DNA of 64,000 nucleotides from Escherichia coli (GTDB taxonomy: Bacteria > Pseudomonadota > Gammaproteobacteria > Enterobacterales > Enterobacteriaceae). Numbering within the stretch: position 1 is the first letter of the stretch; each line of letters opens with the position of its first letter. Positions 22,710 through 55,021 of this stretch are shown here, piece after piece. The notes below the pieces were generated by a model, which did no database searches, was not told the origin of the DNA, and saw only the letters and a list, made by a program, of their open reading frames with translations. The position numbers were made by a program, and so were the translations under genes. The stretch lies in the NCBI RefSeq assembly GCF_003018115.1, contig NZ_CP027457.1; one strand, written 5' to 3'.

Positions 22710-22713
22710 TCGT

Positions 22714-23169: not shown

Positions 23170-24792
<1,623 letters not shown>

Positions 24793-24814
24793 CTACCGCC
24801 AGATGTTACAGGGT

Positions 24815-25738: not shown

Positions 25739-25739
25739 T

Positions 25740-26982
<1,243 letters not shown>

Positions 26983-28426: not shown

Positions 28427-28489
28427 TTTGATACTCCCCCCTGACTCCTCCATACTGAAAGTGAACTGACAGCCAAATGGAGGAGTCAC

Positions 28490-29137: not shown

Positions 29138-29270
29138 TCCTGACCCGCTGCGGCAGCCTGTATTCGCGGGTTGCCGCCGTTTTCAGTTTTTTCTGCTGGC
29201 GAGTTTATCGCTGGTGACACATGCTGCGTTGTGTCAGGATATTGACGCAGATTTCATGTCGAGGACTACC

Positions 29271-29831
29271 ATGAACAAGTTTTTATTTGCCGCTGCATTG
29301 ATCGTCAGTGGCCTGCTCGTTGGCTGTAATCAACTCACCCAATACACCATCACCGAACAAGAAATTAACCAGTCGCTTGCGAAACATAATAATTTCTCAA
29401 AAGATATCGGTTTACCCGGTGTGGCTGACGCCCATATTGTTCTGACAAACCTGACCAGCCAAATTGGTCGCGAAGAGCCGAATAAGGTTACCCTAACCGG
29501 AGACGCCAATCTGGACATGAACTCCCTGTTCGGTAGCCAGAAAGCGACCATGAAACTGAAGCTGAAAGCGCTGCCCGTGTTTGATAAAGAAAAAGGCGCG
29601 ATCTTCCTGAAAGAGATGGAAGTGGTCGATGCGACGGTACAACCGGAAAAAATGCAAACGGTGATGCAAACGTTGCTTCCCTATTTGAACCAGGCATTAC
29701 GCAATTACTTTAACCAGCAACCTGCTTACGTCCTGCGCGAAGATGGCAGCCAGGGCGAAGCAATGGCGAAAAAACTGGCGAAAGGCATTGAAGTGAAGCC
29801 AGGCGAAATTGTCATTCCATTTACTGATTAA
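29271..29831 (+). CDS. yceB: DUF1439 lipoprotein YceB
   Basis: ORF 29070-29831; start at MNKFLFAAALIVSGLLVGC (lipobox). Confidence 0.88.
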   Translation: MNKFLFAAALIVSGLLVGCNQLTQYTITEQEINQSLAKHNNFSKDIGLPGVADAHIVLTNLTSQIGREEPNKVTLTGDANLDMNSLFGSQKATMKLKLKALPVFDKEKGAIFLKEMEVVDATVQPEKMQTVMQTLLPYLNQALRNYFNQQPAYVLREDGSQGEAMAKKLAKGIEVKPGEIVIPFTD

Positions 29832-29936
29832 TCACGAGGGCGCATTCGCGCCCTTTATTTTTCGTGCAAAGGAAAACGTTTCCGCTTATCCTTTGTGTCC
29901 GGCAAAAACATCCCTTCAGCCGGAGCATAGAGATTA

Positions 29937-30983
29937 ATGACTGCACCATCCCAGGTATTAAAGATCCGCCGCCCAGACGACTGGCACCTTCACCTCCGCG
30001 ATGGCGACATGTTAAAAACTGTCGTGCCGTATACCAGCGAAATTTATGGACGGGCTATCGTAATGCCCAATCTGGCTCCGCCCGTGACCACCGTTGAGGC
30101 TGCCGTGGCGTATCGCCAACGTATTCTTGACGCCGTACCTGCCGGGCACGATTTCACCCCATTGATGACCTGTTATTTAACAGATTCGCTGGATCCTAAT
30201 GAGCTGGAGCGCGGATTTAACGAAGGCGTGTTCACCGCTGCAAAACTTTACCCGGCAAACGCAACCACTAACTCCAGCCACGGCGTGACGTCAATTGACG
30301 CAATCATGCCGGTACTTGAGCGCATGGAAAAAATCGGTATGCCGCTACTGGTGCATGGTGAAGTGACACATGCAGATATCGACATTTTTGATCGTGAAGC
30401 GCGCTTTATAGAAAGCGTGATGGAACCTCTGCGCCAGCGCCTGACTGCGCTGAAAGTCGTTTTTGAGCACATCACCACCAAAGATGCTGCCGACTATGTC
30501 CGTGACGGAAATGAACGGCTGGCTGCCACCATCACTCCGCAGCATCTGATGTTTAACCGCAACCATATGCTGGTTGGAGGCGTGCGTCCGCACCTGTATT
30601 GTCTACCCATCCTCAAACGCAATATTCACCAACAGGCATTGCGTGAACTGGTCGCCAGCGGTTTTAATCGAGTATTCCTCGGTACGGATTCTGCGCCACA
30701 TGCACGTCATCGCAAAGAGAGCAGTTGCGGCTGCGCGGGCTGCTTCAACGCCCCAACCGCGCTGGGCAGTTACGCTACCGTCTTTGAAGAGATGAATGCT
30801 CTGCAGCACTTTGAAGCATTCTGTTCTGTAAACGGCCCGCAATTCTATGGGTTGCCGGTCAACGACACATTCATCGAACTGGTACGTGAAGAGCATCAGG
30901 TTGCTGAAAGCATCGCACTGACTGATGACACGCTGGTGCCATTCCTCGCCGGGGAAACGGTACGCTGGTCCGTTAAACAATAA
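29937..30983 (+). CDS. pyrC: dihydroorotase
   Basis: 348-aa [37 protein letters not shown]... (HxH metal-binding motif). Confidence 0.95.
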
Positions 30984-31019
30984 AAATCGTAGCTTCCTGT
31001 TGTCATTAGGTTATTTTAC

Positions 31020-31035
31020 CTGTATAAATAACCAG
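31020..31035 (+). promoter_or_regulatory. LexA (SOS) box of dinI
   Basis: CTGTATAAATAACCAG matches CTG-N10-CAG with TA-rich core, ~20 nt upstream of the dinI start. Confidence 0.8.
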
Positions 31036-31056
31036 TATATTCAACAGGGGGCTATT

Positions 31057-31302
31057 ATGCGAATTGAAGTCACCATAGCGAAAACTTCTCCATTGCCAGC
31101 TGGGGCTATTGACGCCCTGGCTGGCGAACTTTCTCGCCGTATTCAGTATGCGTTTCCTGATAATGAAGGCCACGTATCGGTACGTTATGCCGCAGCGAAT
31201 AATTTATCGGTTATTGGCGCGACAAAAGAAGATAAACAGCGCATTAGCGAAATTCTCCAGGAAACGTGGGAAAGCGCCGATGACTGGTTTGTCAGCGAAT
31301 AA
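31057..31302 (+). CDS. dinI: DNA damage-inducible protein I
   Basis: 81-aa ORF MRIEVTIAKTSPLPAGAIDALAGELSRRIQYAFPDNEGHVSVRYAAANNLSVIG... from internal Met of track ORF 30925-31302. Confidence 0.93.
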   Translation: MRIEVTIAKTSPLPAGAIDALAGELSRRIQYAFPDNEGHVSVRYAAANNLSVIGATKEDKQRISEILQETWESADDWFVSE

Positions 31303-31323
31303 TATGCAGTGATTTTTGTTTTT

Positions 31324-31346
31324 GCCGGGTCGCCCCGGCTTTTTTA
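31324..31346 (+). terminator. rho-independent terminator of dinI
   Basis: GCCGGG-TCGCC-CCGGC stem followed by TTTTTTATTTT. Confidence 0.65.
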
Positions 31347-31591
31347 TTTTACTTACGAATTTTGAGTACAAAATTTCTACACCTCCTCAAAATAATTGCA
31401 CAATATGCTAAAAAAATATGAATGACATGCTGTTTTATTGTTCATATAAATCTTAAAAGCAGAAATTTATCTGTTTCCCCCTTTAAAAATTCGGTGAATA
31501 CCCTTACTTATTGGTATACTGAAGTTGCTTCAGATAAAAACGCATTGAACCTCGAATAACGTTGTCTAGTAACACGAATTAGGGGGCCATG

Positions 31592-31846
31592 ATGGAAAAA
31601 AATAATGAAGTCATTCAGACTCATCCGCTCGTAGGGTGGGACATCAGCACCGTTGATAGCTATGATGCGCTGATGTTGCGTTTGCACTACCAGACCCCAA
31701 ATAAGTCCGAGCAGGAAGGGACTGAAGTTGGTCAGACGCTCTGGTTAACCACTGATGTTGCCAGACAATTTATTTCGATATTAGAAGCAGGAATCGCCAA
31801 AATTGAATCCGGTGATTTCCCGGTAAACGAGTATCGGCGTCATTAA
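31592..31846 (+). CDS. bssS: biofilm regulator BssS
   Basis: 84-aa ORF MEKNNEVIQTHPLVGWDISTVDSYDALMLRLHYQTPNK... Confidence 0.9.
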   Translation: MEKNNEVIQTHPLVGWDISTVDSYDALMLRLHYQTPNKSEQEGTEVGQTLWLTTDVARQFISILEAGIAKIESGDFPVNEYRRH

Positions 31847-31960
31847 CATGACATGACCATCCACCCAAAAGGCACCTCACCGGTGCCTTTACCATTTCTG
31901 GGTTGTATATCTGCATTCAGTTAATTACTCTGCTTAAACCATGAGAGCAGAGAGAAAAAA

Positions 31961-33079
31961 ATGAAATACGATCTCATCATTATTGGCAGCGGTTCCGTAG
32001 GCGCTGCCGCCGGGTATTATGCAACCCGCGCCGGTTTAAACGTGCTTATGACCGACGCCCATATGCCACCACATCAACACGGCAGCCACCACGGCGATAC
32101 GCGATTAATTCGCCATGCTTATGGTGAAGGCGAAAAGTATGTCCCGCTGGTCCTCCGCGCGCAAACGCTGTGGGATGAGCTCTCCCGCCACAACGAAGAT
32201 GATCCTATTTTTGTACGCTCTGGTGTCATTAACCTTGGCCCGGCTGACTCCGCATTTCTCGCCAACGTCGCCCACAGCGCCGAACAGTGGCAACTCAACG
32301 TTGAAAAGCTCGATGCGCAAGGGATTATGGCCCGCTGGCCAGAAATACTCGTCCCGGACAACTACATCGGCTTATTTGAGACTGATTCCGGTTTTTTGCG
32401 CAGCGAACTGGCGATTAAAACCTGGATCCAACTGGCGAAGGAAGCGGGCTGTGCGCAACTGTTCAACTGCCCGGTCACCGCAATTCGTCATGACGATGAT
32501 GGCGTAACTATTGAAACGGCTGACGGTGAGTATCAGGCGAAAAAAGCGATTGTCTGCGCGGGAACATGGGTAAAAGACCTGCTCCCGGAGCTGCCTGTCC
32601 AGCCCGTACGTAAAGTATTTGCCTGGTATCAGGCCGATGGCCGCTATAGCGTGAAGAATAAATTCCCGGCGTTTACCGGTGAACTGCCCAATGGCGATCA
32701 ATATTATGGTTTTCCGGCAGAAAACGACGCGTTGAAGATTGGTAAACATAACGGAGGCCAGGTTATCCATTCAGCGGATGAACGTGTTCCGTTTGCGGAA
32801 GTGGCCAGTGATGGGTCAGAAGCCTTCCCGTTCTTGCGCAATGTATTGCCGGGTATCGGTTGCTGCCTGTACGGCGCTGCCTGCACCTATGATAATTCGC
32901 CTGACGAAGATTTTATTATCGATACCCTACCCGGCCACGATAATACACTGCTCATTACCGGCCTGAGTGGGCACGGTTTTAAATTTGCGTCAGTTTTAGG
33001 GGAAATAGCTGCCGATTTTGCGCAAGACAAAAAAAGCGATTTTGATTTGACGCCATTCAGGCTTTCCCGCTTCCAATAA
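31961..33079 (+). CDS. solA: N-methyl-L-tryptophan oxidase
   Basis: 372-aa [28 protein letters not shown]... (FAD-binding GxGxxG). Confidence 0.93.
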
Positions 33080-33099
33080 TCATCATTACGGCCTCCAGA

Positions 33100-33240
33100 A
33101 TGAGGCCGTTTTTACAGGAGTATTTAATGCGTCGGCTGTTGCACTATCTCATCAATAATATTCGCGAGCATCTGATGCTTTATCTTTTTCTCTGGGGATT
33201 GTTGGCAATTATGGATCTGATCTATGTGTTTTATTTTTAG
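33100..33240 (+). CDS. yceO: small membrane protein YceO
   Basis: 46-codon ORF below track cutoff: [46 protein letters not shown]; start overlaps the solA terminator hairpin. Confidence 0.7.
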
Positions 33241-33500
33241 TTTTCCGCACTGACATAAACTGACAAATATTTAATCTCCCTTTCATTTAGCGTGAAAAAT
33301 TGAATGAGATTATTCCTGCTTCTACAGCACTCACCAGACATCTCTGATGCTGAACCCACTAAACTTATGAAGATTCTTTCATTATTAATTCAAAATTATT
33401 GAAATAAAAATAAATATCATTCAATTTGTTATTTTTGTGTTGCAATTCATTCTCCGACACGCCATTTTCTTTCTCTCGCAAATTCGTTTTGGATGCACTT

Positions 33501-34067
33501 ATGTCATTCACAAATACCCCTGAACGCTATGGTGTTATATCTGCGGCCTTCCATTGGCTAAGCGCAATTATTGTCTACGGCATGTTTGCTTTAGGTCTGT
33601 GGATGGTCACGCTCAGTTATTACGATGGCTGGTATCACAAAGCACCCGAACTGCATAAAAGCATCGGTATTTTGTTAATGATGGGGCTGGTTATTCGCGT
33701 TCTGTGGCGTGTCATATCTCCACCGCCGGGTCCGCTGCCGAGTTATTCGCCCATGACTCGTCTTGCCGCAAAAGCTGGACATCTCGCATTGTACCTATTG
33801 CTGTTCGCCATCGGCATCAGCGGCTATCTGATCTCAACTGCCGATGGTAAACCGATCAGCGTTTTTGGCTGGTTTGACGTCCCCGCGACCCTTGCCGACG
33901 CTGGCGCACAGGCAGACTTTGCCGGTGCCCTGCATTTTTGGCTCGCGTGGAGCGTCGTAGTACTGTCCGTTATGCACGGATTTATGGCCCTGAAGCATCA
34001 TTTCATCGATAAAGACGACACTCTGAAGCGCATGCTGGGAAAGTCGTCATCTGACTATGGAGTATAA
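33501..34067 (+). CDS. yceJ: cytochrome b561 homolog
   Basis: ORF 33426-34067; start at MSFTNTPERYGVISAAFHWLSAIIVYGMF... Confidence 0.88.
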   Translation: MSFTNTPERYGVISAAFHWLSAIIVYGMFALGLWMVTLSYYDGWYHKAPELHKSIGILLMMGLVIRVLWRVISPPPGPLPSYSPMTRLAAKAGHLALYLLLFAIGISGYLISTADGKPISVFGWFDVPATLADAGAQADFAGALHFWLAWSVVVLSVMHGFMALKHHFIDKDDTLKRMLGKSSSDYGV

Positions 34068-34070
34068 AAA

Positions 34071-34646
34071 ATGAAAAAAAGCCTGCTTGGTTTAACCTTC
34101 GCGTCCCTGATGTTCTCTGCCGGTTCAGCGGTTGCCGCCGATTACAAAATTGACAAAGAAGGTCAGCACGCCTTTGTTAACTTCCGCATCCAGCATCTTG
34201 GCTATAGCTGGTTATATGGCACCTTTAAAGATTTCGACGGTACTTTTACCTTTGATGAAAAAAATCCAGCTGCCGATAAAGTGAATGTGACAATTAACAC
34301 CACCAGCGTCGATACTAATCACGCCGAACGTGATAAACATCTTCGCAGTGCAGATTTCCTCAATACCGCAAAATATCCACAGGCAACATTCACCTCCACC
34401 AGCGTGAAGAAAGACGGTGACGAACTGGATATTACCGGCGATCTGACGCTGAATGGCGTAACCAAACCCGTCACGCTGGAAGCGAAATTAATTGGTCAGG
34501 GCGACGACCCGTGGGGTGGTAAACGAGCAGGCTTTGAGGCCGAAGGCAAAATTAAGCTCAAGGACTTCAATATCAAGACAGATTTAGGTCCAGCTTCTCA
34601 GGAAGTGGATCTGATTATTTCAGTGGAAGGCGTACAGCAGAAGTAA
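34071..34646 (+). CDS. yceI: periplasmic polyisoprenoid-binding protein YceI
   Basis: 191-aa ORF with signal peptide [22 protein letters not shown]. Confidence 0.9.
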
Positions 34647-34687
34647 GAGTGAAATGTTGCCGGATGGCACGCATCCGGCAATGATAT

Positions 34688-35740
34688 TTATTCTGTTGGA
34701 TCAGGAATGCCCAGTGTTGTATTCAGACGTCCACGAGACTTATTAAAGATCTTATTGCCATTTTCACGTCCTGCCCGACGGCGTCGCTGTTCTTCTGGCG
34801 GTAACGCGCTTTCTTCGCAGCAAATCTCACTACAACAACCTTTGTATTTTTCCGCACATACTGGACACTGAATAAACAGCAGGTGGCAGCCATCATTTTT
34901 ACAGTTGGTATGGCTGTCGCACGGCGCACCGCACTGGTGGCAATGCGCAATAATCTCATCAGTTATACGTTCGCCCATCCGCTCGTCAAAAACAAAATTT
35001 TTGCCAATAAAACGCACCGGCAAGCCCTGCTCGCGCGCCCTACGGGCGTATTCAATAATTCCGCCCTCGATATGCCAGACTTTATTGAATCCGTTATGTT
35101 TCATCCAGGCACTGGCCTTTTCACAACGAATGCCGCCGGTGCAGTACATGACGATTTTTTTATCTTTATGTGCCTGCATCATCTCGACTGCTTTTGGCAG
35201 CTGCTCACGGAAGGTATCTGCTGGAATTTCCAGCGCGTTTTCAAAGTGCCCCACTTCATACTCATAGTGGTTACGCATGTCGATAAACAGTGCATCGGGA
35301 TCGTCAAGCATGGCGTTCACTTCCGCCGCTTGCAGATACTCACCAACATTGCTGGCATCAAAGTGAGGATCGTCAATACCGTCGGCAACGATACGATCGC
35401 GGACCTTCATGCGCAGTACCCAGAAGGATTTCCCGTCATCATCCAACGCGATATTCAGGCGTAAGCCATCTAAAGCCGAGTCGAAGGCATAGAGCTGCGC
35501 GCGAAATGTTTCAACATTGCTCGCAGGTACGCTGATTTGCGCGTTAATGCCCTCATGCGCCAGATACACTCGCCCAAAAACATTCAGCGCGGTAAACAGC
35601 TGATATAAAGCGTCACGGGTCGCCTTAGGATCGGCGATGTGGAAATACTTATAAAACGAAATGGTGGTTCGCGGTTCGCTCTCAGCCAACATTTTGGCTT
35701 TTAACGCGTCGTTGGAAATGCGGTTGTGTAACACTGGCAT
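34688..35740 (-). CDS. trhO: tRNA uridine(34) hydroxylase (rhodanese-domain, YceA)
   Basis: ORF 34688-35794; start at [32 protein letters not shown]...; rhodanese CTGGIRC motif and C-terminal Cys cluster. Confidence 0.9.
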
Positions 35741-35964
35741 GGTGTACGATTCCTGCGAGATGGGAAAGTAAAAATCCGCGGCATGATATAGCAATTATCG
35801 ATAATTAACATCCACATATTTTACGCTACATTTGCGCATTAAAAATTATTTGTTATTTACAAGCGCGGCAATTTCGCCCAGTCTTCAGCCACAAATTTTG
35901 GTTGCGGGCGAAAAAATGCGACAATACATACAATTGCCCGAATAGGTTGAAAAACAGGATTGAT

Positions 35965-36885
35965 ATGACGAATCTACCCAAGTTCTCCACCGCACTGCTT
36001 CATCCGCGTTATTGGTTAACCTGGTTGGGTATTGGCGTACTTTGGTTAGTCGTGCAATTGCCCTACCCGGTTATCTACCGCCTCGGTTGTGGATTAGGAA
36101 AACTGGCGTTACGTTTTATGAAACGACGCGCAAAAATTGTGCATCGCAACCTGGAACTGTGCTTCCCGGAAATGAGCGAACAAGAACGCCGTAAAATGGC
36201 GGTGAAGAATTTCGAATCCGTTGGCATGGGACTGATGGAAACTGGCATGGCGTGGTTCTGGCCGGACCGCCGAATCGCCCGCTGGACGGAAGTGATCGGC
36301 ATGGAACACATTCGTGACGTGCAGGCGCAAAAACGCGGCATCCTGTTAGTTGGCATCCATTTTCTTACACTGGAGCTGGGTGCGCGGCAGTTTGGTATGC
36401 AGGAACCGGGGATTGGCGTTTACCGCCCGAACGATAATCCACTGATTGACTGGCTACAAACCTGGGGCCGTTTGCGCTCAAATAAATCGATGCTCGACCG
36501 CAAAGATTTAAAAGGCATGATTAAAGCCCTGAAAAAAGGCGAAGTGGTCTGGTACGCACCGGATCATGATTACGGCCCGCGCTCAAGCGTTTTCGTCCCG
36601 TTGTTTGCCGTTGAGCAGGCTGCGACCACGACCGGAACCTGGATGCTGGCACGGATGTCCGGCGCATGTCTGGTGCCCTTCGTTCCACGCCGTAAGCCAG
36701 ATGGCAAAGGGTATCAATTGATTATGCTGCCGCCAGAGTGTTCTCCGCCGCTGGATGATGCCGAAACTACCGCCGCGTGGATGAACAAAGTGGTCGAAAA
36801 ATGCATCATGATGGCACCAGAGCAGTATATGTGGTTACACCGTCGCTTTAAAACACGCCCGGAAGGCGTTCCTTCACGCTATTAA
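35965..36885 (+). CDS. lpxL: lipid A lauroyl acyltransferase
   Basis: ORF 35902-36885; start at [27 protein letters not shown]... Confidence 0.92.
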
Positions 36886-37056
36886 ATCTCCCATGCCGGA
36901 TGCTTCAGAATGGCATCCGGCATTACCACAGCAAATCCCCCTGATTTAGCGATAAAAGCTCTCTGGATTGCGCCCCCTGGAAGTCGGGCGCATAATTAGT
37001 GTGCTTATCTTTTCTTCTTATGTTCACCGCGCCTGGCGCACCAACAGCGGATTGCT

Positions 37057-38283
37057 ATGTCACCCTGTGAAAATGACACCCCTATAAACTGGAAACGAAA
37101 CCTGATCGTCGCCTGGCTAGGCTGTTTTCTTACCGGGGCCGCCTTCAGTCTGGTAATGCCCTTCTTACCCCTCTACGTTGAGCAGCTTGGCGTTACCGGC
37201 CACTCCGCCTTGAATATGTGGTCCGGTATTGTCTTCAGCATTACATTTTTATTTTCGGCCATCGCCTCACCGTTTTGGGGTGGACTCGCCGACCGTAAAG
37301 GCCGAAAACTCATGCTATTACGTTCTGCTCTCGGCATGGGCATCGTGATGGTGTTGATGGGACTGGCACAAAATATCTGGCAGTTTTTGATCCTGCGGGC
37401 GCTTCTTGGTTTACTTGGCGGATTTGTCCCCAACGCTAATGCTCTTATCGCCACACAAGTACCGCGTAATAAAAGCGGCTGGGCGCTGGGTACGCTCTCC
37501 ACAGGCGGCGTTAGTGGTGCGTTGCTCGGCCCAATGGCTGGCGGCCTGCTCGCCGATAGCTACGGCTTACGTCCGGTATTCTTTATTACCGCCAGTGTGC
37601 TCATACTCTGCTTTTCCGTCACCCTGTTCTGCATCAGAGAAAAATTCCAGCCGGTCAGCAAAAAAGAGATGCTGCACATGCGGGAAGTGGTGACATCACT
37701 TAAAAACCCGAAACTGGTACTCAGCCTGTTTGTCACCACGTTAATCATCCAGGTAGCGACGGGCTCAATTGCCCCCATTCTGACGCTGTATGTCCGCGAA
37801 CTGGCGGGTAACGTCAGTAACGTCGCCTTTATCAGTGGCATGATCGCCTCGGTGCCAGGCGTGGCGGCTCTGCTGAGTGCACCACGACTCGGCAAACTTG
37901 GCGATCGAATCGGCCCCGAAAAGATCCTGATTACGGCGCTGATCTTTTCTGTACTGCTGTTGATCCCAATGTCATACGTTCAGACGCCATTACAACTTGG
38001 GATTTTACGTTTTTTGCTCGGTGCCGCCGATGGTGCACTACTCCCCGCCGTACAGACCCTGTTGGTTTACAACTCGAGCAACCAAATCGCCGGACGTATC
38101 TTCAGCTATAACCAATCGTTTCGTGATATTGGCAACGTTACCGGACCATTGATGGGAGCAGCGATTTCAGCGAACTACGGTTTCAGAGCGGTATTTCTCG
38201 TCACCGCTGGCGTAGTGTTATTCAACGCAGTCTATTCATGGAACAGTCTACGTCGTCGTCGAATACCCCAGGTATCGAACTGA
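37057..38283 (+). CDS. mdtG: MFS multidrug efflux transporter MdtG
   Basis: 408-aa [48 protein letters not shown]... Confidence 0.93.
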
Positions 38284-38365
38284 TTTTTCGCCTTTCATAC
38301 TTGCAAAAGCGGAGAATCAGCTATCCTTTTCCCTGAAACCTCATCAACTCAAAGGGAGAATCGTG

Positions 38366-38740
38366 ATGACCATGTACGCAACGCTTGAAGAAGCCATTGA
38401 CGCTGCACGCGAAGAATTTCTTGCAGACAACCCCGGCATTGACGCCGAAGACGCGAATGTGCAACAGTTCAATGCCCAAAAATACGTTTTGCAGGACGGC
38501 GACATCATGTGGCAAGTTGAGTTTTTTGCCGACGAAGGGGAAGAAGGTGAATGTTTACCTATGCTTAGCGGTGAAGCCGCGCAAAGTGTTTTTGATGGCG
38601 ACTATGATGAGATAGAGATCCGCCAGGAGTGGCAGGAAGAGAATACATTACATGAATGGGACGAGGGGGAATTTCAGCTTGAGCCACCGCTGGATACCGA
38701 GGAAGGACGCGCAGCAGCTGATGAGTGGGATGAACGTTAA
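38366..38740 (+). CDS. msyB: acidic protein MsyB
   Basis: 124-aa highly acidic ORF MTMYATLEEAIDAAREEFLADNPGIDAEDANVQQF... Confidence 0.9.
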   Translation: MTMYATLEEAIDAAREEFLADNPGIDAEDANVQQFNAQKYVLQDGDIMWQVEFFADEGEEGECLPMLSGEAAQSVFDGDYDEIEIRQEWQEENTLHEWDEGEFQLEPPLDTEEGRAAADEWDER

Positions 38741-38968
38741 TCACTCATACGGGCCATGATGAATGTCGATCGGCAGCAGTAAAGTATCAAAAACCAGGGA
38801 GAATGGCAGATCAAGGATTGTGACATAACGCCAGGCGGAGTCACGCACATCCCATTGCACACCGGGATAATATTGGTTGCCATGCCCCTGCCCCGGTATA
38901 GTGCGGCTAATGATGCTGCCACAGCCACTCAGCAAGGTCACCATGATGCTCACCACAATTAAACGCAT
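38741..38968 (-). CDS. yceK: DUF1375 lipoprotein YceK
   Basis: 75-aa ORF MRLIVVSIMVTLLSGCGSIISRT... (lipobox); convergent with msyB. Confidence 0.85.
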   Translation of the reverse strand: MRLIVVSIMVTLLSGCGSIISRTIPGQGHGNQYYPGVQWDVRDSAWRYVTILDLPFSLVFDTLLLPIDIHHGPYE

Positions 38969-38984
38969 TTGATACCTCTTCCGT

Positions 38985-39016
38985 AAAAAAATACCGGCAT
39001 AACGCCGGTATTTTTA
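38985..39016 (-). terminator. bidirectional rho-independent terminator downstream of opgH
   Basis: Perfect 10-bp stem AAATACCGGC/GCCGGTATTT with 5-nt loop, flanked by A-run and T-run. Confidence 0.7.
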
Positions 39017-39032
39017 TTGGCTCGTTGTTTTT

Positions 39033-39133
39033 GCCAGATGCGACGTGAACGCCTTACCCAACCTACAAAATCTTGCAAAATCAATAAATTGCAGGAACGA
39101 TGTAGGCCTGATAAGCGTAGCGCATCAGGCAAC
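39033..39133. repeat. REP-like palindromic units
   Basis: GATGTAGGCCTGATAAGCGTAGCGCATCAGGCAA and a degenerate REP copy between the opgH stop and the terminator. Confidence 0.6.
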
Positions 39134-39140
39134 TACGTTT

Positions 39141-43323
<4,183 letters not shown>

Positions 43324-43604
43324 TCAGCACGCTGGCTCATGGATTAAGCACCTGATTGCAACCGTTTTCACTTTCCGTGCTTCTCCTAAAGACAGAAGCA
43401 TCGACTTCGTGTAGGGTTTGCCAGCAAATTTATTTATCAACCGTCTTACAGACGCTTCCATTCTGGTTAGTGGTAGCGGTGATGCTATGCATAAAAACTT
43501 GAAGCCTGCGCCTGGCGCGGTCAGGTCGGTGTCGCTATGGCAACAAGCCTAAAGGCATAACCCGACAGGGATAAGACGAAAAATCCGAGATTAGTTAACC
43601 ATAT

Positions 43605-44762
43605 ATGAATCCAGTACCCGCGCAACGTGAATATTTCCTCGACTCCATCCGCGCCTGGCTGATGTTGTTAGGGATCCCTTTTCATATTTCTTTAATCTAT
43701 TCGAGCCATACATGGCATGTGAATAGCGCCGAACCGTCATTGTGGCTGACCCTTTTTAATGACTTCATCCACTCGTTCCGCATGCAGGTATTTTTCGTTA
43801 TATCCGGCTACTTTTCCTACATGCTTTTTTTACGCTATCCCTTGAAAAAATGGTGGAAAGTACGTGTCGAACGTGTAGGTATCCCGATGTTAACAGCCAT
43901 CCCCCTACTGACATTGCCGCAATTTATTATGCTGCAATACGTCAAAGGGAAAGCGGAAAGTTGGCCTGGACTGTCATTGTATGACAAATATAATACGTTG
44001 GCCTGGGAATTAATATCGCACCTGTGGTTTTTATTGGTGTTAGTGGTCATGACGACGCTGTGCGTCTGGATATTCAAACGCATCAGAAATAATTTAGAAA
44101 ATTCTGATAAAACGAATAAAAAATTCTCGATGGTAAAACTATCGGTGATTTTTTTGTGCCTCGGCATCGGCTATGCGGTAATAAGAAGAACGATTTTTAT
44201 TGTGTATCCGCCCATTCTGAGTAACGGCATGTTCAATTTTATTGTCATGCAAACGCTATTTTATTTGCCGTTCTTTATCCTCGGCGCACTGGCTTTCATT
44301 TTCCCTCATCTTAAAGCCTTGTTTACCACGCCGTCTCGTGGCTGTACCCTCGCAGCAGCATTGGCATTTGTCGCTTACTTACTCAACCAGCGCTATGGCA
44401 GTGGCGATGCCTGGATGTACGAAACCGAGTCTGTGATCACCATGGTCCTCGGTCTGTGGATGGTGAATGTGGTCTTCTCCTTCGGCCACCGTTTGCTTAA
44501 CTTCCAGTCAGCGCGGGTGACTTACTTTGTTAACGCATCGCTATTTATCTATCTGGTTCACCACCCGTTAACGCTGTTTTTCGGCGCGTACATTACACCG
44601 CACATCACCTCCAACTGGCTTGGTTTTCTCTGTGGCCTGATATTCGTAGTAGGGATTGCGATAATTCTGTATGAAATTCATTTACGCATCCCATTACTGA
44701 AGTTTTTGTTCTCTGGTAAACCGGTTGTTAAGCGTGAGAACGATAAAGCACCAGCCCGTTAA
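43605..44762 (+). CDS. opgC: OPG succinyltransferase (membrane acyltransferase-3 family)
   Basis: 385-aa polytopic [30 protein letters not shown]..., divergent from opgGH. Confidence 0.9.
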
Positions 44763-44769
44763 GCCGCGT

Positions 44770-46200
44770 TTACAATAACCATTCCACGGGCAATATCGAC
44801 GCCAGTCTGACCATAACCCGCTTCCAGAAACTGGTGGCGGGTTCTTTTTTGAGAACAATCTCTTTCTTTGCATGACGATCAACCCAGTTGATCCGTCCCC
44901 ACCTGTCCAGACGGAGCTGCCAGGCCGCATCATACTGGCTCTGAATAAAGCGTTTATCAATTAACTGTGCCAGCGTTTCGCTCTCTATCACGAAGCCCAT
45001 TTCAGTATTGAGCAATGTTGAACGCGGATCGAAATTGAAAGAGCCGATAAACACCGTTTTACCATCGATGCTAAAGGTTTTAGCATGCAGGCTGGCACCG
45101 GAATTACCTGTTATGCCGCGATCGTGTAACGTACTACTTTGTTCACACGTCGGCTTGAGTTCATATAATTCCACGCCATAACGGAGCAATTTTTTGCGCC
45201 AGCGCGCGTATCCGGCATGGACGACAGCAACATCGTTAGCGGCAAGAGAATTGGTTAGGATCGCAATCTTTACCCCTTTTCTCACCATCCGTAAGAGTTG
45301 CGCCACACCTGCGCGTGTCGGTACAAAATAGGAAGAGATAATATCGATGCGTTCACTGGGTGAGCCCATGATATCGAACAGGCGCTGCGGTAACAGTGAA
45401 TGCCGTTTTGCCTTGCCCTCCCCTTTCGCCGGATCATCACTTAATAAACGTGTCTTCGCCCAGATAAGCGGCAACGTTCCATCAACCAGATGATTTATAA
45501 ACGGACTGGATTCCATTTTGCGTAAATAACGATGCGTCATGGCATCGTTATGCCAGGAGGCGGGTAACTCGATGCGATCCGCCATTTCACCTTCCGGGAC
45601 ATCCAGCACCTGCTGTAAGGGTGAAACCGATTTGCAATACCAGTAGCGGGCGAAATCATCGGCAACGTCCTCTACTACGGGTCCTATTGCCATGACATCT
45701 AAATCCGAAAAAAGTGGCTCTTCCCCTGCCCCAAAATAGGCATCACCAATATTTCGCCCCCCTACCAGCGTCACCACGCCATCGACAGTGAAACTTTTAT
45801 TGTGCATACGGCGATTGAGGCGGGAAAAGTCGGTGATATAACCAAGCGGACGCAGCAAGCGAAACGAGAAAGGATTAAAAAGCCGGACTTCAATGCGGGG
45901 ATGGCTGTCAAGCAAGCGTAAAATGTCGTCAAGTCCGGGCGTATTGTTGTCGTCCAGCAACAAACGGACGCGAACGCCACGCTTTGCTGCGGCTAACAGG
46001 GCGGAAAACAGTAACCGACCCGACATATCGTCCTGCCAGATGTAATACTGAACATCCAGCGTATGCTCTGCCATTTCGGCCAGACGATACCGGGCGGCAA
46101 ACGCATCCAAACTTTTCTCCAGAGGGAAAAGACCACACTGACCGGGATGTTGCGAACACAGTGGCAGCACCGCGCTCGCCAGCCGGGGCAAATCATTCAT
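44770..46200 (-). CDS. clsC: cardiolipin synthase C (phospholipase D family)
   Basis: ORF 44770-46350 with two HxK(x4)D motifs (HNKSFTVDG; HAKTFSIDG); start placed at [17 protein letters not shown] giving ATGA-type overlap with ymdB stop. Confidence 0.85.
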
Positions 46201-46726
46201 CTCCTTGTTGGGTAAGGAGTCTTTCGTAGAGGTGGGCGTTTTCTTCATCATAACAGACAAAGTATACCTGTTCGGGTAAAGCGTGACGGGTAATAAATTC
46301 TGAAACGGTTTTAACTGCGATTTCAGCCGCTGCCGCACGAGGGTAACCATAAACCCCAGTACTGATTGCAGGAAAAGCCACTGACGTATAGCTGTTTGCC
46401 GCCACCAGTCGCAGGCTATTCAGATAGGCATCCTGCAAAAGCTGGTCTTCGTTTTGTTCACCACCACGCCAGACTGGCCCGACGGTGTGTACTACGGCTT
46501 TAGCGGGAAGATCGCCTGCAAGCGTAATAACGGCATGCCCCGTAGGGCAATCGCCCTGCTGTTGCCTGACTTTTAAACAGGCATCCAGCAGGGCCGGACC
46601 CGCTGCGCGATGAATGGCCCCATCGACGCCGCCGCCTCCCATTAATGACGGATTAGCCGCATTCACAATCACATCAACGGCCAGTTTGGTAATATCACCC
46701 TGCACAACATGAATACGCGTTTTCAT
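46193..46726 (-). CDS. ymdB: O-acetyl-ADP-ribose deacetylase (macrodomain)
   Basis: 177-aa [46 protein letters not shown]... Confidence 0.92.
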
Positions 46727-46820
46727 AACGCCTCCTTACACCTTCTTGTTTCTTAAGTGTACAGCAGGCTTTTTGGTTAAATCGCATTTTTCTGCTCAGC
46801 AACGTGCGTTGTTCAGAAAC

Positions 46821-47585
<765 letters not shown>

Positions 47586-47643
47586 ATTCTTCTCCCGAAA
47601 AAAAACAGGGCTTGCGCCCTGTTTCTGTAATACAAATGATGTA

Positions 47644-48099
47644 TTAGTACTGATGAGCGGTCGCGTTGTTACCAAAGCCAACCTGAGTCACGTTGACGGA
47701 GGAATTAGATGCAGTCTGGTCAACTGCAGCACCGTTGCCACCACCGAACTGTTTAACAGTCATTTCAGAATTTTTGCCGTTCCACTGATCAAGAGTGGCG
47801 CTGTTACCGAAGCCACGTTGGGTCAGATCGATTGAGCTGTCATCTGAGCCCTGACCAACATCTGCACCATTACCACCGCCATGCTGGGTAATAGTCAAGT
47901 CAGAGTTACGGGCATCAGTTTGCAGAGCAAGTGCAGAGTTACCGCCACCGTACTGGTAAATGTTCAGCTCTGAATTTGGGCCGCTATTATTACCGCCACC
48001 ACCGTGGTTACCGCCGCCGCCGTACTGAGGAACAACACCTGCCAGAGCGCTACCGGAGAATACGATTGCTGCAATTGCTGCTACTTTTAAAAGTTTCAT
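47644..48099 (-). CDS. csgA: major curlin subunit
   Basis: 151-aa ORF MKLLKVAAIAAIVFSGSALAGVVPQYGGGGNHGGGGNNSGPNSELNIYQYGGGNSAL... with five S-X5-Q-X-G-X-G-N-X-A-X3-Q repeats. Confidence 0.97.
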   Translation of the reverse strand: MKLLKVAAIAAIVFSGSALAGVVPQYGGGGNHGGGGNNSGPNSELNIYQYGGGNSALALQTDARNSDLTITQHGGGNGADVGQGSDDSSIDLTQRGFGNSATLDQWNGKNSEMTVKQFGGGNGAAVDQTASNSSVNVTQVGFGNNATAHQY

Positions 48100-48139
48100 G
48101 TAAAACCCCCATCGGATTGATTTAAAAGTCGAATGGAAA

Positions 48140-48595
48140 TTAACGTTGTGTCACGCGAATAGCCATTTGCGACTGTCTCTGCACTACAATTGCCGTTTTT
48201 TGAGTACCATACTGTGTAATATTTGCTTTATTACCAGAACCTTTCTGGATAATCATCGCAGTATTACCATAAGCACCTTGCGAAATACTGGCATCGTTGG
48301 CACTGCCCGCCTGATCAATATATGCAAGGTTATAATCTCCTGTCTGGTCAATCTTTGCCCGGTTGCTACTACCTTCTTGCGCAACAACCGCCAAAAGTTT
48401 TGAGCCTCCCTGCCGTAACTGAGCACTATTATTAGTCCCAGCTTGACCAATTATGGCTGCCTGATTAAATGAAGACTTACTCAATTCATTTACCGCGAAG
48501 TTATATTCTGAATTAGCTAAATCATAACCTGCTGCGGCTGCAATCCCAGGCGCACCCAGTATTGTTAACATCATAAATAACAATTTGTTTTTCAT
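48140..48595 (-). CDS. csgB: minor curlin subunit / nucleator
   Basis: ORF 48140-48622; start at MKNKLLFMMLTILGAPGIAAA. Confidence 0.95.
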   Translation of the reverse strand: MKNKLLFMMLTILGAPGIAAAAGYDLANSEYNFAVNELSKSSFNQAAIIGQAGTNNSAQLRQGGSKLLAVVAQEGSSNRAKIDQTGDYNLAYIDQAGSANDASISQGAYGNTAMIIQKGSGNKANITQYGTQKTAIVVQRQSQMAIRVTQR

Positions 48596-49348
48596 GTTGT
48601 CACCCTGGACCTGGTCGTACATTTAAGAAATTAAATCATTTCAACTTGGTTGTTAACGCAACCTGTATTTTGTTAACGCTGCGTTACGATGGAAAGTATG
48701 TCTGCGGAAATATTTTTAATAACTCACCCGCGCGTTGTATTTTTCTTTTTTTGTTCATACCAAAGTATTAAAACCCACGTAAATACGCTGTTATCTACGC
48801 AAAAAATATTTTGTTTTCTTTTAAATCTCCGTTTTCCGCTAGCAAAAAACACCAGACAGTCATTCTTCTTGCCCGTCGCTGATTGCTGCGATATGTCTTG
48901 CGCACAAGCCGTGACAAACCTCGTCTTTTTGCAGTAAAAAATTGTCCACGGAGGTGTGGAGAAAAAACAAGAACGTTTTACATGACGAAAGGACTACACC
49001 GAAATATTTTTTATATGCATTATTAGTAAGTTATCACCATTTGTATGATTTTTTAAAATTGTGCAATAAAAACCAAATGTACAACTTTTCTATCATTTCT
49101 AAACTTAATAAAACCTTAAGGTTAACATTTTAATATAACGAGTTACATTTAGTTACATGTTTAACACTTGATTTAAGATTTGTAATGGCTAGATTGAAAT
49201 CAGATGTAATCCATTAGTTTTATATTTTACCCATTTAGGGTTGATTTATTACTACACACAGCAGTGCAACATCTGTCAGTACTTCTGGTGCTTCTATTTT
49301 AGAGGCAGCTGTCAGGTGTGCGATCAATAAAAAAAGCGGGGTTTCATC
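48596..49348. promoter_or_regulatory. csgB-csgD divergent intergenic regulatory region
   Basis: ~750-bp AT-rich non-coding region between divergent curli operons; known multi-factor control region, individual sites not resolved by eye. Confidence 0.7.
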
Positions 49349-49999
<651 letters not shown>

Positions 50000-50003
50000 A
50001 GCC

Positions 50004-50393
50004 ATGAAACGTTATTTACGCTGGATTGTGGCGGCAGAATTTCTGTTCGCCGCAGGGAATCTTCACGCCGTTGAGGTAGAAGTCCCGGGATTGTTAACTG
50101 ACCATACTGTTTCATCTATTGGCCATGATTTTTACCGAGCCTTTAGTGATAAATGGGAAAGTGACTATACGGGTAACTTAACGATTAATGAAAGGCCCAG
50201 TGCACGATGGGGAAGTTGGATCACTATAACGGTGAATCAGGACGTTATTTTCCAGACTTTTTTATTCCCGTTGAAAAGAGACTTCGAAAAAACTGTCGTC
50301 TTTGCACTGATTCAAACTGAAGAAGCACTAAATCGTCGCCAGATAAATCAGGCGTTATTAAGTACGGGCGATTTGGCGCATGATGAATTCTAA
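50004..50393 (+). CDS. csgE: curli secretion specificity factor
   Basis: 129-aa [50 protein letters not shown]... Confidence 0.93.
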
Positions 50394-50417
50394 ATAAAAA
50401 ATTGTTCGGAGGCTGCA

Positions 50418-50834
50418 ATGCGTGTCAAACATGCAGTAGTTCTACTCATGCTTATTTCGCCATTAAGTTGGGCTGGAACCATGACTTTCCAGTTCCGTAA
50501 TCCAAACTTTGGTGGTAACCCAAATAATGGCGCTTTTTTATTAAATAGCGCTCAGGCCCAAAACTCTTATAAAGATCCGAGCTATAACGATGACTTTGGT
50601 ATTGAAACACCCTCAGCGTTAGATAACTTTACTCAGGCCATCCAGTCACAAATTTTAGGTGGGCTACTGTCGAATATTAATACCGGTAAACCGGGCCGCA
50701 TGGTGACCAACGATTATATTGTTGATATTGCTAACCGCGATGGTCAATTGCAGTTGAACGTGACAGATCGTAAAACCGGACAAACCTCGACCATCCAGGT
50801 TTCGGGTTTACAAAATAACTCAACCGATTTTTAA
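50418..50834 (+). CDS. csgF: curli assembly component
   Basis: 138-aa [41 protein letters not shown]... Confidence 0.93.
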
Positions 50835-50860
50835 GCCCCAGCTTCATAAGGAAAATAATC

Positions 50861-51694
50861 ATGCAGCGCTTATTTCTTTTGGTTGCCGTCATGTTACTGA
50901 GCGGATGCTTAACCGCCCCGCCTAAAGAAGCCGCCAGACCGACATTAATGCCTCGTGCTCAGAGCTACAAAGATTTGACCCATCTGCCAGCGCCGACGGG
51001 TAAGATCTTTGTTTCGGTATACAACATTCAGGACGAAACCGGGCAATTTAAACCCTACCCGGCAAGTAACTTCTCCACTGCTGTTCCGCAAAGCGCCACG
51101 GCGATGCTGGTCACGGCATTGAAAGATTCTCGCTGGTTTATACCGCTGGAGCGCCAGGGCTTACAAAACCTGCTTAACGAGCGCAAGATTATTCGTGCTG
51201 CACAAGAAAACGGCACGGTTGCCATTAATAACCGAATCCCGCTGCAATCTTTAACGGCGGCAAATATCATGGTTGAAGGTTCGATTATCGGTTATGAAAG
51301 CAACGTCAAATCGGGCGGGGTTGGGGCAAGATATTTTGGGATCGGTGCCGACACGCAATACCAGCTCGATCAGATTGCCGTGAACCTGCGCGTCGTCAAT
51401 GTGAGTACCGGTGAGATCCTCTCCTCGGTGAACACCAGTAAGACGATACTTTCCTATGAAGTTCAGGCCGGGGTTTTCCGCTTTATTGACTACCAGCGCT
51501 TGCTGGAAGGGGAAGTGGGTTACACCTCGAACGAACCCGTTATGCTGTGCCTGATGTCGGCTATCGAAACAGGGGTCATTTTCCTGATTAATGATGGTAT
51601 TGACCGTGGTCTGTGGGATTTGCAGAACAAAGCAGAACGGCAGAATGACATTCTGGTGAAATACCGCCATATGTCGGTTCCACCGGAATCCTGA
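50861..51694 (+). CDS. csgG: curli secretion channel lipoprotein
   Basis: 277-aa ORF MQRLFLLVAVMLLSGCLTAPPKEAARPTLMPRAQSYKDLTHLP... Confidence 0.95.
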   Translation: MQRLFLLVAVMLLSGCLTAPPKEAARPTLMPRAQSYKDLTHLPAPTGKIFVSVYNIQDETGQFKPYPASNFSTAVPQSATAMLVTALKDSRWFIPLERQGLQNLLNERKIIRAAQENGTVAINNRIPLQSLTAANIMVEGSIIGYESNVKSGGVGARYFGIGADTQYQLDQIAVNLRVVNVSTGEILSSVNTSKTILSYEVQAGVFRFIDYQRLLEGEVGYTSNEPVMLCLMSAIETGVIFLINDGIDRGLWDLQNKAERQNDILVKYRHMSVPPES

Positions 51695-51732
51695 CAGATA
51701 AAAATGCCAGAATTAATAATCCGGCATTTACT

Positions 51733-51762
51733 GTTTAAGCGAAAGCGTGAGTGCCCCTCACG
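51733..51762 (+). terminator. terminator after csgG (bidirectional with ycdZ)
   Basis: GCGTGAG-TGCCC-CTCACGC hairpin followed by TTTATTTTT. Confidence 0.65.
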
Positions 51763-52249
51763 CTTTATTTTTGATTTCCTGCTCACGGTGAGCCGTCTTT
51801 GCACTACGCGCCGCCAGCCACAGGCCGCTGTTTTTCATTGCGTAACCAAATACCAGCCCAAGCGCCAGCGAAGGTAACACCAGTTTCCAGTCACCCTGCC
51901 CGGCAAACGTCGCGCATGCGCCTATAAACGTCCCCGGAACAAATGAAAGCAGCAGCTGTTTGGCCTGAATACACATCAGAAACGCGACAATACCGGTTAT
52001 GACATAACCGAGAATTTCCAGATGTGGCGTCAGTGCACTACCGTAAATAATGACCATCGCCCACACCACGCCACTAAGCAGGGTTGCAGCGGAGATCGCC
52101 AGCCCTTTCAGCCCACCTTGCGGGCAAGCAAAGTAGGCCGTACAGCCCAGGAAGCCCGCCCAGCTTAGTAAGCCCAGGGAAACAGCCACCCATCCCCAGA
52201 TACCGGAGAGAATGCCTGTTGTGATTGCAATAGAGAGAAGTATGTTCAT
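51758..52249 (-). CDS. ycdZ: DUF1097 inner membrane protein YcdZ
   Basis: ORF 51758-52297; start at MNILLSIAITTGILSGIWGW; hydrophobic throughout. Confidence 0.85.
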   Translation of the reverse strand: MNILLSIAITTGILSGIWGWVAVSLGLLSWAGFLGCTAYFACPQGGLKGLAISAATLLSGVVWAMVIIYGSALTPHLEILGYVITGIVAFLMCIQAKQLLLSFVPGTFIGACATFAGQGDWKLVLPSLALGLVFGYAMKNSGLWLAARSAKTAHREQEIKNKA

Positions 52250-52350
52250 GCCGCGCATGATAGCAGAAAACGCGGCCATGAATGAGATCGAGCACACATT
52301 TTATGCAACAACAAATTATCAGTTGCAGTTATGAGTGACGTAGATCACAT

Positions 52351-52905
52351 TTACTCTTCAGAATCCTCTTCCAGCTCGTCCCACATTGCACTAATGGCAT
52401 CACGGGTTAGCGGTGCCATGGTGCGCCAGAAAGGCGTGGTTGCATGGGCCTCCACTTTGCCAAGGAACGCGCCACACCAGGGTACCAGATACTCACTGAA
52501 CAGTGTTTCCAGTGCTTCGCTCTCATCTTCCGTTGACTGATCTTCCAGCCAGGAAGCCGCGAGCAGCAATGTGCCGATGTGATCGGCTGGCGTATCTGCT
52601 AATGGCATCCCTCGCTCAGAAAGAAAAGCGCGCACTTCCGCTTCCGTTGCGTCCTCAACCCATGCGCTACGATATGGCGGCACGGCACATTCATCGCCGA
52701 TAAACAACGCATTGTAATCGGCAGAGACTTGCGTCATATCACAGCTTTTCTGCAAACGTGTCAGCAACTCATCCTGCTCCAGTGGCCAGTTCGCAGCCAG
52801 TTTCCCCTCACGAATCAGGGTAAACAGCGGCACCAGTAAAGGATCTTGCGGTTGGCGGTAATAGAGCGAACCCAGCACACGACAGAGGATAGAAAACTCG
52901 TTCAT
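52351..52905 (-). CDS. ycdY: TorD-family chaperone for YcdX
   Basis: 184-aa ORF MNEFSILCRVLGSLYYRQPQDPLLVPLFTLIREGKL... Confidence 0.9.
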   Translation of the reverse strand: MNEFSILCRVLGSLYYRQPQDPLLVPLFTLIREGKLAANWPLEQDELLTRLQKSCDMTQVSADYNALFIGDECAVPPYRSAWVEDATEAEVRAFLSERGMPLADTPADHIGTLLLAASWLEDQSTEDESEALETLFSEYLVPWCGAFLGKVEAHATTPFWRTMAPLTRDAISAMWDELEEDSEE

Positions 52906-52928
52906 TAATATATTTCCATTACTAGTAA

Positions 52929-53666
52929 TTAAAGGTCTGCAAATTCCGCAATCGGTGCCATACCGCGAGATTCAAGGAAGTTCAGTAAGCGGCGCGGAGA
53001 AACATTCAAAATGCGCTCTGGCGGAAAATCTACCGCGTCGAGGATTTTAAGACACTCTTCAAATTCCCCCAGGGTAAACGCGGTGTGAGAATCCGAGCCT
53101 AATGCAACCCAACCTCCAGCATCACGTACCGCTGCGGCTACCGCACGACAGTTGTCTTCACTGCCCTTACGTGAGTGTAAAAATGAGGAATTATTGATTT
53201 CCAGCGCCACCTGATGTTTCGCGGCTGCTTCAGCAACGGCTTTAACATCTATTTCATATTTCGGATTTCCGGGATGGCTTATTATATGCACATTGCCGCT
53301 GGCGATAGTGGCGATCATCGCTTGTGTATTGGTCGCTTTGTCATGTGGTGCAAAAACCGGCTCATGAAAACCGGCAATAATCAGATCCAGCGAGTCAAAC
53401 ATTTTACCGCTGCAATCAATTTCACCATCAACATTTTTAATGTTAGCTTCGATGCCGCGCAGGATCCCTACCCCATCAACCACTCGCGGCCAGATACGCA
53501 TGTTAATGAAGTGCCAGTGATGCGGCGCATCTTCCATATCCGGGCCATGATCGGTGATCGCAAAAAGTTTAATGCCCTTTTGTTTGGCCTGGGCAATGTA
53601 ATCACTCAATGTGCTATATGCATGTGTGCTGGCAACGGTATGCATATGAAGGTCGACGGGATACAT
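52929..53666 (-). CDS. ycdX: PHP-family zinc phosphatase YcdX
   Basis: 245-aa [56 protein letters not shown]... Confidence 0.92.
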
Positions 53667-53720
53667 AACTCTCTCCTGTATTCAATTCCCGCCAAGGATA
53701 GCAGGAATCCTGATGCTTTA

Positions 53721-54698
<978 letters not shown>

Positions 54699-54892
54699 TT
54701 ATCGTTATGATCTACAAAGGCCACCAGCATAACAAATCCGTGGTCGGTGGCAAAAAAAGCAGATTTCGCTTATTAAAACCACACATTGATTGAAGTTTGA
54801 ATAAACGCGCGATTTTTTAAAAAAGTTTGTTGACCTCAGGTCATGATTTCCCTAAATTAGCGCCCGTTCCAGCAAGACAGGAACGACAATTT

Positions 54893-54980
54893 GGTGAGGT
54901 GTCCGAGTGGCTGAAGGAGCACGCCTGGAAAGTGTGTATACGGCAACGTATCGGGGGTTCGAATCCCCCCCTCACCGCCA
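54893..54980 (+). tRNA. serX: tRNA-Ser (anticodon GGA), serX-type
   Basis: 88-nt GGTGAGGTGTCCGAGTGGCTGAAGGAGCACGCCTGGAAAGTGTGTATACGGCAACGTATCGGGGGTTCGAATCCCCCCCTCACCGCCA; long variable arm, encoded CCA; adjacent to ghrA. Confidence 0.97.
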
Positions 54981-54984
54981 GATT

Positions 54985-55021
54985 ATAAGCGCATGTTATT
55001 GTTTAACATGCGCTTTTTTAT
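54985..55021 (+). terminator. rho-independent terminator of the tRNA-Ser gene
   Basis: AAGCGCATGTT-ATTGTTT-AACATGCGCTT stem followed by TTTTTTATTTTT. Confidence 0.8.

Follow-up and report, generated by a model that had tools for sequence, protein, structure and literature searches.

The csgB-csgD spacer of an ETEC-like Escherichia coli: a standard curli control region with a rare allele in the csgD leader

Does the long AT-rich stretch between csgB and csgD in this Escherichia coli DNA correspond to the ordinary curli control region, and do any of its differences from K-12 fall within known regulator sites? The region carries the sigma-S-dependent promoters of csgD and csgB, and sites for OmpR, MlrA, IHF, H-NS, CpxR, RstA, RcdA, RcsB, CRP, Cra, and CsgD are clustered around the csgD start. 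In addition, Hfq and the small RNAs (sRNAs) McaS, RprA, GcvB, OmrA/B, RydC, and RybB act on the 148-nucleotide (nt) csgD leader. The spacer was analyzed within a stretch of 64,000 nucleotides, here called the window. A preliminary description, made from the letters alone, had listed an AT-rich csgB-csgD control region of about 750 bp in which nothing novel was seen. In K-12, the region was described as a 754-bp spacer with 65.5% AT, the fifth-largest divergent spacer in that genome, bound by at least 12 proteins and five sRNAs (PMC5745457).

The spacer is bounded by the start codons of two divergent genes (csgB, 48593-48595 on the minus strand; csgD, ATG at 49349 on the plus strand), and the coordinates given in the preliminary description were exact.

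48596..49348, no strand: csgB-csgD intergenic control region, 753 bp, 34.4% GC
48140..48595, minus strand: csgB coding sequence, 151 amino acids (aa), protein identical to that of K-12 by open reading frame (ORF) list, RefSeq, and translation comparison
49349..49999, plus strand: csgD coding sequence, 216 aa, intact, with S19P and S110A relative to K-12

The gene order along the plus strand is clsC-ymdB-ymdA-csgC-csgA-csgB, the spacer, and then csgD-csgE-csgF-csgG-ycdZ, as in RefSeq for K-12 MG1655 and strain F9792. All seven csg proteins were full length in the window; CsgB, CsgA, CsgE, CsgF, and CsgG had the K-12 sequences, CsgC showed two substitutions, and CsgD showed the two listed above. 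The CsgD protein of F9792, of L7_E1373_ETEC, and of all eight other non-K-12 strains listed with a csgD annotation is WP_000481500.1. Because every non-K-12 strain listed carries it, the K-12 CsgD is the odd form. Next to csgC, ymdA is an intact ORF of 103 aa in the window (46821..47132), and it is annotated as frameshifted in strain 2014C-4135. The intact csgBAC and csgDEFG operons on both sides, together with 749 of 754 positions identical to K-12, bear out the identification as the csgB-csgD control region, and no evidence contradicting it was found.

The closest relatives of the window differ between its two parts. Strain F9792, an O169:H41-type enterotoxigenic E. coli (ETEC), is 99.98% identical to the window over the backbone from 1 to 54988 and has a different gene at tRNA-Ser(GGA), whereas 2014C-4135 is 100% identical from 54989 onward. 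No genome matching both the backbone and the island half was found in the genome collection. The integrated island directly after tRNA-Ser(GGA) (54893..54980), in the segment 54893..64000 of the window, includes an IS110 transposase, a frameshifted DUF4942 gene, a CbtA/YeeU toxin-antitoxin pair, RadC, an antirestriction gene, DUF932, and IrmA. The spacer itself was 100% identical to that of the window in the O169:H41-type ETEC strains F9792, F8111-1SC3, F6326-C1, and 2014EL-1345-2 and in L7_E1373_ETEC. In RefSeq, no feature is annotated between csgB and csgD in either F9792 or K-12.

By the annotation of F9792 for 1..54988 and of 2014C-4135 for the remainder, the spacer was the longest noncoding gap in the window, ahead of rne-rluC (572 bp, containing the rne 5' untranslated region element) and mdoC-mdoG (392 bp). 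Its earlier listing as one of the longest such stretches was therefore an understatement. The GC content of the spacer (34.4%; 65.6% AT) was well below the 50.9% of the window, with equally low values in only 0.65% of 753-bp segments, and both its length and its AT content agreed with the published K-12 values (753 versus 754 bp; 65.6% versus 65.5% AT). The extreme AT richness that had been pointed out around 49000-49250 was recovered almost to the base.

49002..49251, no strand: AT-rich core, 22.4% GC, the lowest 250-bp GC content in the whole 64 kb

The GC content of this core was about 5.4 standard deviations below the window mean. Such AT richness would suit nucleoid proteins such as H-NS and IHF. 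Intrinsic curvature of the region has been asserted (PMC12713406; PMC5745457); by AA/TT helical periodicity, a crude proxy for curvature, a signal as strong was reached in 92 of 1,000 shuffles for the AT-rich core, which is not significant, and in 9 of 1,000 for the csgB half.

The csgD transcription start was placed at 49201, because the leader is 148 nt long (PMC4152358) and the -335/+67 primer coordinates fit this position (PMC12388358); the reverse primer of the latter study (+67) ends at window position 49267. With this numbering, the spacer was aligned with that of K-12 MG1655 (NC_000913.3, 1103197..1103950), which shares the flanking genes, orientation, and architecture. The two spacers differ by four substitutions and by the loss of one base from an A-tract in the window.

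48752: T in the window versus A in K-12, -449 from the csgD start
48801-48806: A6 in the window versus A7 in K-12, about -400 from the csgD start
48842: G in the window versus T in K-12, -359 from the csgD start
48849: A in the window versus G in K-12, -352 from the csgD start
49241, plus strand: T in the window versus C in K-12, +41 of the csgD mRNA, -108 from the ATG

Identity with K-12 was uninterrupted from 48850 to 49240 (-351 to +40 in this numbering) and again from +42 to the ATG. The alignment that the preliminary description had proposed, with a search for strain-specific indels in regulator sites, thus gave a single indel, the A7-to-A6 change, which lies roughly 400 bp ahead of the csgD start, where the spacer is least conserved, and belongs to a common haplotype; the K-12 alignment placed no indel inside any mapped regulator site. 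Allele frequencies were then obtained by short-query searches of about 5,330 complete E. coli genomes; the spacer as a whole was found in 5,329 of 5,426 complete genomes at a coverage of at least 80%. T48752 was the majority allele and the K-12 A the minority one, with the 61-mer around it exact in 3,170 genomes. The haplotype combining A6, G48842, and A48849 was also common (110-mer exact in 371 genomes, O157:H7 included). Among the five differences, only T49241 was rare.

The regulatory elements that could be read from the sequence were located next, and each of the three motifs was the same as in K-12.

49168..49195, plus strand: inferred csgD core promoter, with a -35-like TTGATT (49168-49173), a 16-bp spacer, and a C followed by a -10-like TAGATT (49190-49195)
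48720..48730, minus strand: CsgD-box-like motif CGGGTGAGTTA upstream of csgB, an exact motif-scan match
49055..49088, -146 to -113 from the csgD start: MlrA-type palindrome AAAATTGTGCA-N12-TGTACAACTTT, two mismatches to the consensus
49142..49157, plus strand, -59 to -44: OmpR-type direct repeat GTTACATTTAGTTACA, an exact motif-scan match

The CsgD box was scanned with CGGGKGAGNKA, which we take to be its consensus, and the strings used for MlrA and the OmpR repeat are likewise presumed consensus strings. Among the placements, a paper backs only that of the activating OmpR site D1, near -51 (PMC13304067). The three motifs are leads that the sequence satisfies rather than independent proof, and they were all present at the expected places: OmpR near -50, MlrA near -130, and the CsgD box upstream of csgB. 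Consensus scans of the spacer for IHF, CpxR, and RcdA gave no exact match. A generic sigma-70 scan missed the csgD promoter, returning two promoter-like sites where 4.4 were expected by chance; the real csgD promoter is weak and activator dependent, and a generic scan is uninformative here.

Published footprints, whose positions derive from K-12 and Salmonella papers, were then compared with the alignment. The RcdA footprint (-308 to -192) and the H-NS footprint (-201 to +28) (PMC3535384) are both inside the interval identical to K-12, and the same interval covers the OmpR D1 site near -51 (PMC13304067) and all but the last box of the RcsB region (-31 to +54) (PMC12388358). In addition, of 32 protein sites mapped in the region, 26 are no more than 200 bp away from the csgD start (PMC5745457), and the only difference from K-12 in the 200-bp zone around that start was +41, within the leader. 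Since every recognizable element is wild type, curli regulation through CsgD is expected to be reference-like. This is an expectation only, because single-base changes in the spacer are reportedly able to alter curli expression strongly (PMC13304067). Altogether, we put at about 95% the probability that this stretch is the standard curli control region with its recognizable elements wild type, that CsgD-controlled curli expression is reference-like, and that the base at +41 has at most a fine-tuning role.

We examined the conservation of the spacer beyond E. coli. Relatives of CsgD were found in 80 Enterobacteriaceae genomes, each representing one species, the spacer was measurable in 76 of them, and conservation was scored as the fraction of these 76 species sharing the window base. 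The spacer was 733 to 802 bp long in 74 of the 76 species and 586 to 589 bp long in two Kosakonia species.

48656..48775, minus strand: conserved block on the csgB promoter side, 63 to 82% of the 76 species sharing the window base
48776..49035, no strand: poorly conserved central spacer, 260 bp, 24 to 53% per 20-bp bin

The csgD promoter module (49036-49200) was conserved, reaching 91% at 49156-49175 and 84% in the block adjoining the MlrA palindrome (49076-49095), and the sRNA pairing site with its stem (49256-49295) was conserved at 81 to 91%. Conservation peaked at both promoter modules and at the sRNA site. Of the five differences from K-12, three fell within the poorly conserved center, and 48752 lay just outside it, in the csgB-side block. 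The corresponding agfB-agfD spacers of Salmonella and those of Citrobacter, Enterobacter, and other Enterobacteriaceae showed a comparable length, the promoter modules, the sRNA site, and a small hairpin after the A/U tract, but they diverged strongly from the window in the central 260 bp or so and in the first 55 nt or so of the leader. Regulation by H-NS and by RcsB has been reported to differ between E. coli and Salmonella (PMC12713406; PMC12388358).

Within the csgD module, the spacing was nearly invariant: the MlrA and OmpR sites were 70 ± 1 bp apart, and the OmpR site was 51 bp from the csgD start in 76 of 77 sequences. The CsgD box and the MlrA site (48725..49080 in the window) were separated by 354 to 366 bp in 74 of these 77, which comprise the window and 76 species. 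A nearly constant distance across poorly conserved sequence may mean that length or geometry, and not the sequence itself, is under constraint. No statement on conservation of the csgB-csgD spacer length was found in the literature searched. Natural insertions do occur in E. coli: IS1 lies inside the csgB-csgD spacer in at least nine other complete genomes, and in strain VTB97420v it lies at the equivalent of about 48829..48839, in the poorly conserved center, at roughly -365 from the csgD start.

The rare base at 49241 lies in the leader of the csgD mRNA, among the elements through which sRNAs act.

49201..49348, plus strand: csgD 5' untranslated leader, 148 nt (PMC4152358), with +2 to +93 matching Rfam family ES056
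49221..49237, plus strand: Hfq site I (-128 to -112), an A/U-rich stretch and the AUUUA loop; coordinates from PMC6061853
49229..49241, plus strand: leader stem-loop I, ACCC-AUUUA-GGGU, 4 bp here versus 3 bp in the K-12 type by ViennaRNA folds
49250..49269, plus strand: shared distal pairing site of McaS, RprA, and GcvB (-99 to -80), same as in K-12, 91% conserved across species
49241..49254, +41 to +54: most downstream RcsB/RcsAB box, reported in PMC12388358; the polymorphism is its first base

The core of stem-loop I consists of CCC (49230-49232), the AUUUA loop, and GGG (49238-49240). Cleavage stimulated by McaS and dependent on RNase E needs the A/U-rich tract and this small stem-loop (PMC6061853). 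Predicted duplexes of the shared pairing site with the K-12 sRNAs had energies of -30.4 kcal/mol for McaS, -24.6 for RprA, and -18.5 for GcvB; these were computed on short target segments, as RNAduplex on full lengths gave unrealistic duplexes with huge loops, which were discarded.

Family ES056 (RF02752) matched 49202..49293 on the plus strand, scoring 117.6 bits where the gathering threshold is 43, covering model positions 1-92 of 92, and was the only Rfam family match within the spacer. The family originated from a novel intergenic RNA-seq transcript of 92 nt with no predicted terminator, with a tabulated offset of +1 from a mapped transcription start (PMC4676190). Because the match equals +2 to +93 of the csgD mRNA, ES056 is read here as the 5' segment of that leader and probably not a separate gene. 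The window departs from the family consensus at the column of the polymorphism. Elsewhere in the window, Rfam matches above the gathering threshold were the SraB sRNA (5789..5957, minus strand), the RNase E 5' untranslated region element (7818..8154, plus strand), the PyrC leader (29887..29936, plus strand), and ES036 (CssrF; 39067..39109, plus strand).

Only nine of the roughly 5,330 genomes searched held an exact copy of the 61-mer carrying T49241, and 5,322 others fell in the 95 to 99% identity band; full-length matches sampled along the whole ranking each showed exactly one mismatch. In the aligned leaders of K-12, O157:H7, O111, ATCC 25922, a pig ETEC, 2014C-4135, and TB06052, position 49241 was C and the leader was otherwise the same. 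The nine T carriers were the four O169:H41-type ETEC strains and L7_E1373_ETEC, whose spacers equal that of the window, and four poultry isolates. The three poultry isolates that were aligned differed from the window at six other spacer positions. T49241 thus stands on two spacer haplotypes and is present in at least two E. coli backgrounds. The earlier verdict that nothing novel was present was essentially right, with the exception of this rare polymorphism, which is invisible to a reader of one sequence.

In the predicted structure, U at 49241 can pair with A49229, which extends the stem from 3 to 4 bp. The predicted hairpin energy changed from -3.5 kcal/mol with C to -4.6 kcal/mol with T, and the pair probability of CCC with GGG in the ViennaRNA ensemble rose from 0.52-0.56 to 0.99. 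The C-to-U change at +41 is thus predicted to close stem-loop I with one further pair, A-U. On the DNA it falls on the first base of the reported RcsB box, where T is the consensus base and the match to TAAGAATATTCCTA is 8 of 14 here versus 7 of 14 in K-12. The shared McaS/RprA/GcvB site was unaffected. In addition, nt 2-16 of RprA are complementary to the leader at -109 to -95 (49241..49255), where T adds one pair (-16.3 versus -14.5 kcal/mol). We do not propose this RprA 5' arm as a leader pairing site, since the arm is buried in the 5' hairpin of RprA itself.

The stem was compared among the relatives by local folds of each species. When 30 leaders aligned by MAFFT were folded jointly with RNAalifold, stem-loop I was not recovered, as loops and stems of varying length put it out of register. 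Local folding gave a small G+C-rich hairpin of -3 kcal/mol or lower at this place in 75 of the 76 sequences folded, which comprised the window and 75 species. E. whittamii and four further Escherichia species representatives share the ACCC/GGGU stem of the window, and a related ACCC/GGGU stem with a different loop was found in many Citrobacter. Hairpins of 4 to 6 bp, such as CCUCC/GGAGG, CCCUU/AAGGG, and GCCUC/GAGGC, were found in other genera. In our reading of these folds, the T allele would restore a stem state that is normal in relatives, and the common C allele of E. coli would give the shortest stem of all.

These observations bear on the alternative that the C-to-T change at +41 is functionally important and measurably alters csgD repression and the curli and biofilm output of the O169:H41-type ETEC lineage, either through a stabilized stem-loop I beside Hfq site I or through a better RcsB box at +41 to +54. 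Several points speak for it. The surrounding 61-nt leader segment is nearly invariant in about 5,320 genomes; the allele, found on two haplotypes, arose or was transferred at least twice; decay driven by McaS and dependent on RNase E needs stem-loop I and the adjacent A/U tract (PMC6061853); the changed base is the first of a reported RcsB box and takes the consensus state (PMC12388358); and the predicted stem is more stable. However, the hairpin energy shifts by only about 1.1 kcal/mol, the site at which the sRNAs pair is unaltered, and the gain in the RcsB box is a single matching base. Moreover, a 4-bp stem is normal in E. whittamii, other Escherichia, and many Citrobacter, and stems of 4 to 6 bp are typical across genera, which places the T allele within a naturally working range. 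We therefore consider a functionally important change quite improbable; a regulatory effect of T49241 is possible and would probably be small. Two readings that go beyond the textbook picture, that the +41 allele, which matches sister Escherichia species, may act as a tuning switch for csgD repression dependent on Hfq and RNase E or on RcsB, and that the central 260 bp or so may be constrained in length rather than sequence, are likewise tentative and, in our estimate, unlikely.

The standard control region also has to be weighed against the idea that the spacer hides small protein genes, such as an ORF of 82 aa at 48689..48937 or one of 63 aa at 48942..49133. Such mechanical ORFs do exist in the spacer, and the RefSeq locus tags of F9792 and 2014C-4135 jump by two numbers between csgD and csgB, probably because small ORF calls in the spacer were later withdrawn. 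However, they are unannotated in the current RefSeq record of every strain examined, and they lie mostly in the least conserved part of the spacer (24 to 53%), where natural IS1 insertions and 1-bp indels also occur. The spacer ORFs were rejected as genes, because none of the four tested had a Pfam match, and we regard their being genes as scarcely credible. The remaining suggestion, that the AT-rich stretch is horizontally acquired foreign DNA between the operons, is prompted by its GC content of 22 to 34% against 51% for the window and by the frequent foreign origin of AT-rich DNA silenced by H-NS, but it is highly improbable given that the spacer is syntenic and conserved in length in 74 of 76 Enterobacteriaceae species, that its AT-rich core is the conserved csgD promoter module with invariant internal spacing, and that its annotation contains neither mobile-element genes nor repeats. 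Among close relatives, none lacking the stretch or showing insertion scars was seen.

The csgB-csgD spacer of the window is thus read as the standard curli control region; the region and its identification are already known, and nothing categorically new was found. This region is among the most densely regulated promoters known and governs the switch to a biofilm of curli and cellulose, which affects the environmental persistence of E. coli and its interaction with the host. With the region intact and resembling the reference, standard curli regulation may be assumed for this ETEC-like strain. A length constraint on the center of the spacer, if true, would point to a nucleoprotein complex of fixed geometry or to a loop coupling both curli promoters. 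The rare leader polymorphism would add an incremental gain: a well-defined allele beside the element that directs sRNA-triggered decay of the csgD mRNA.
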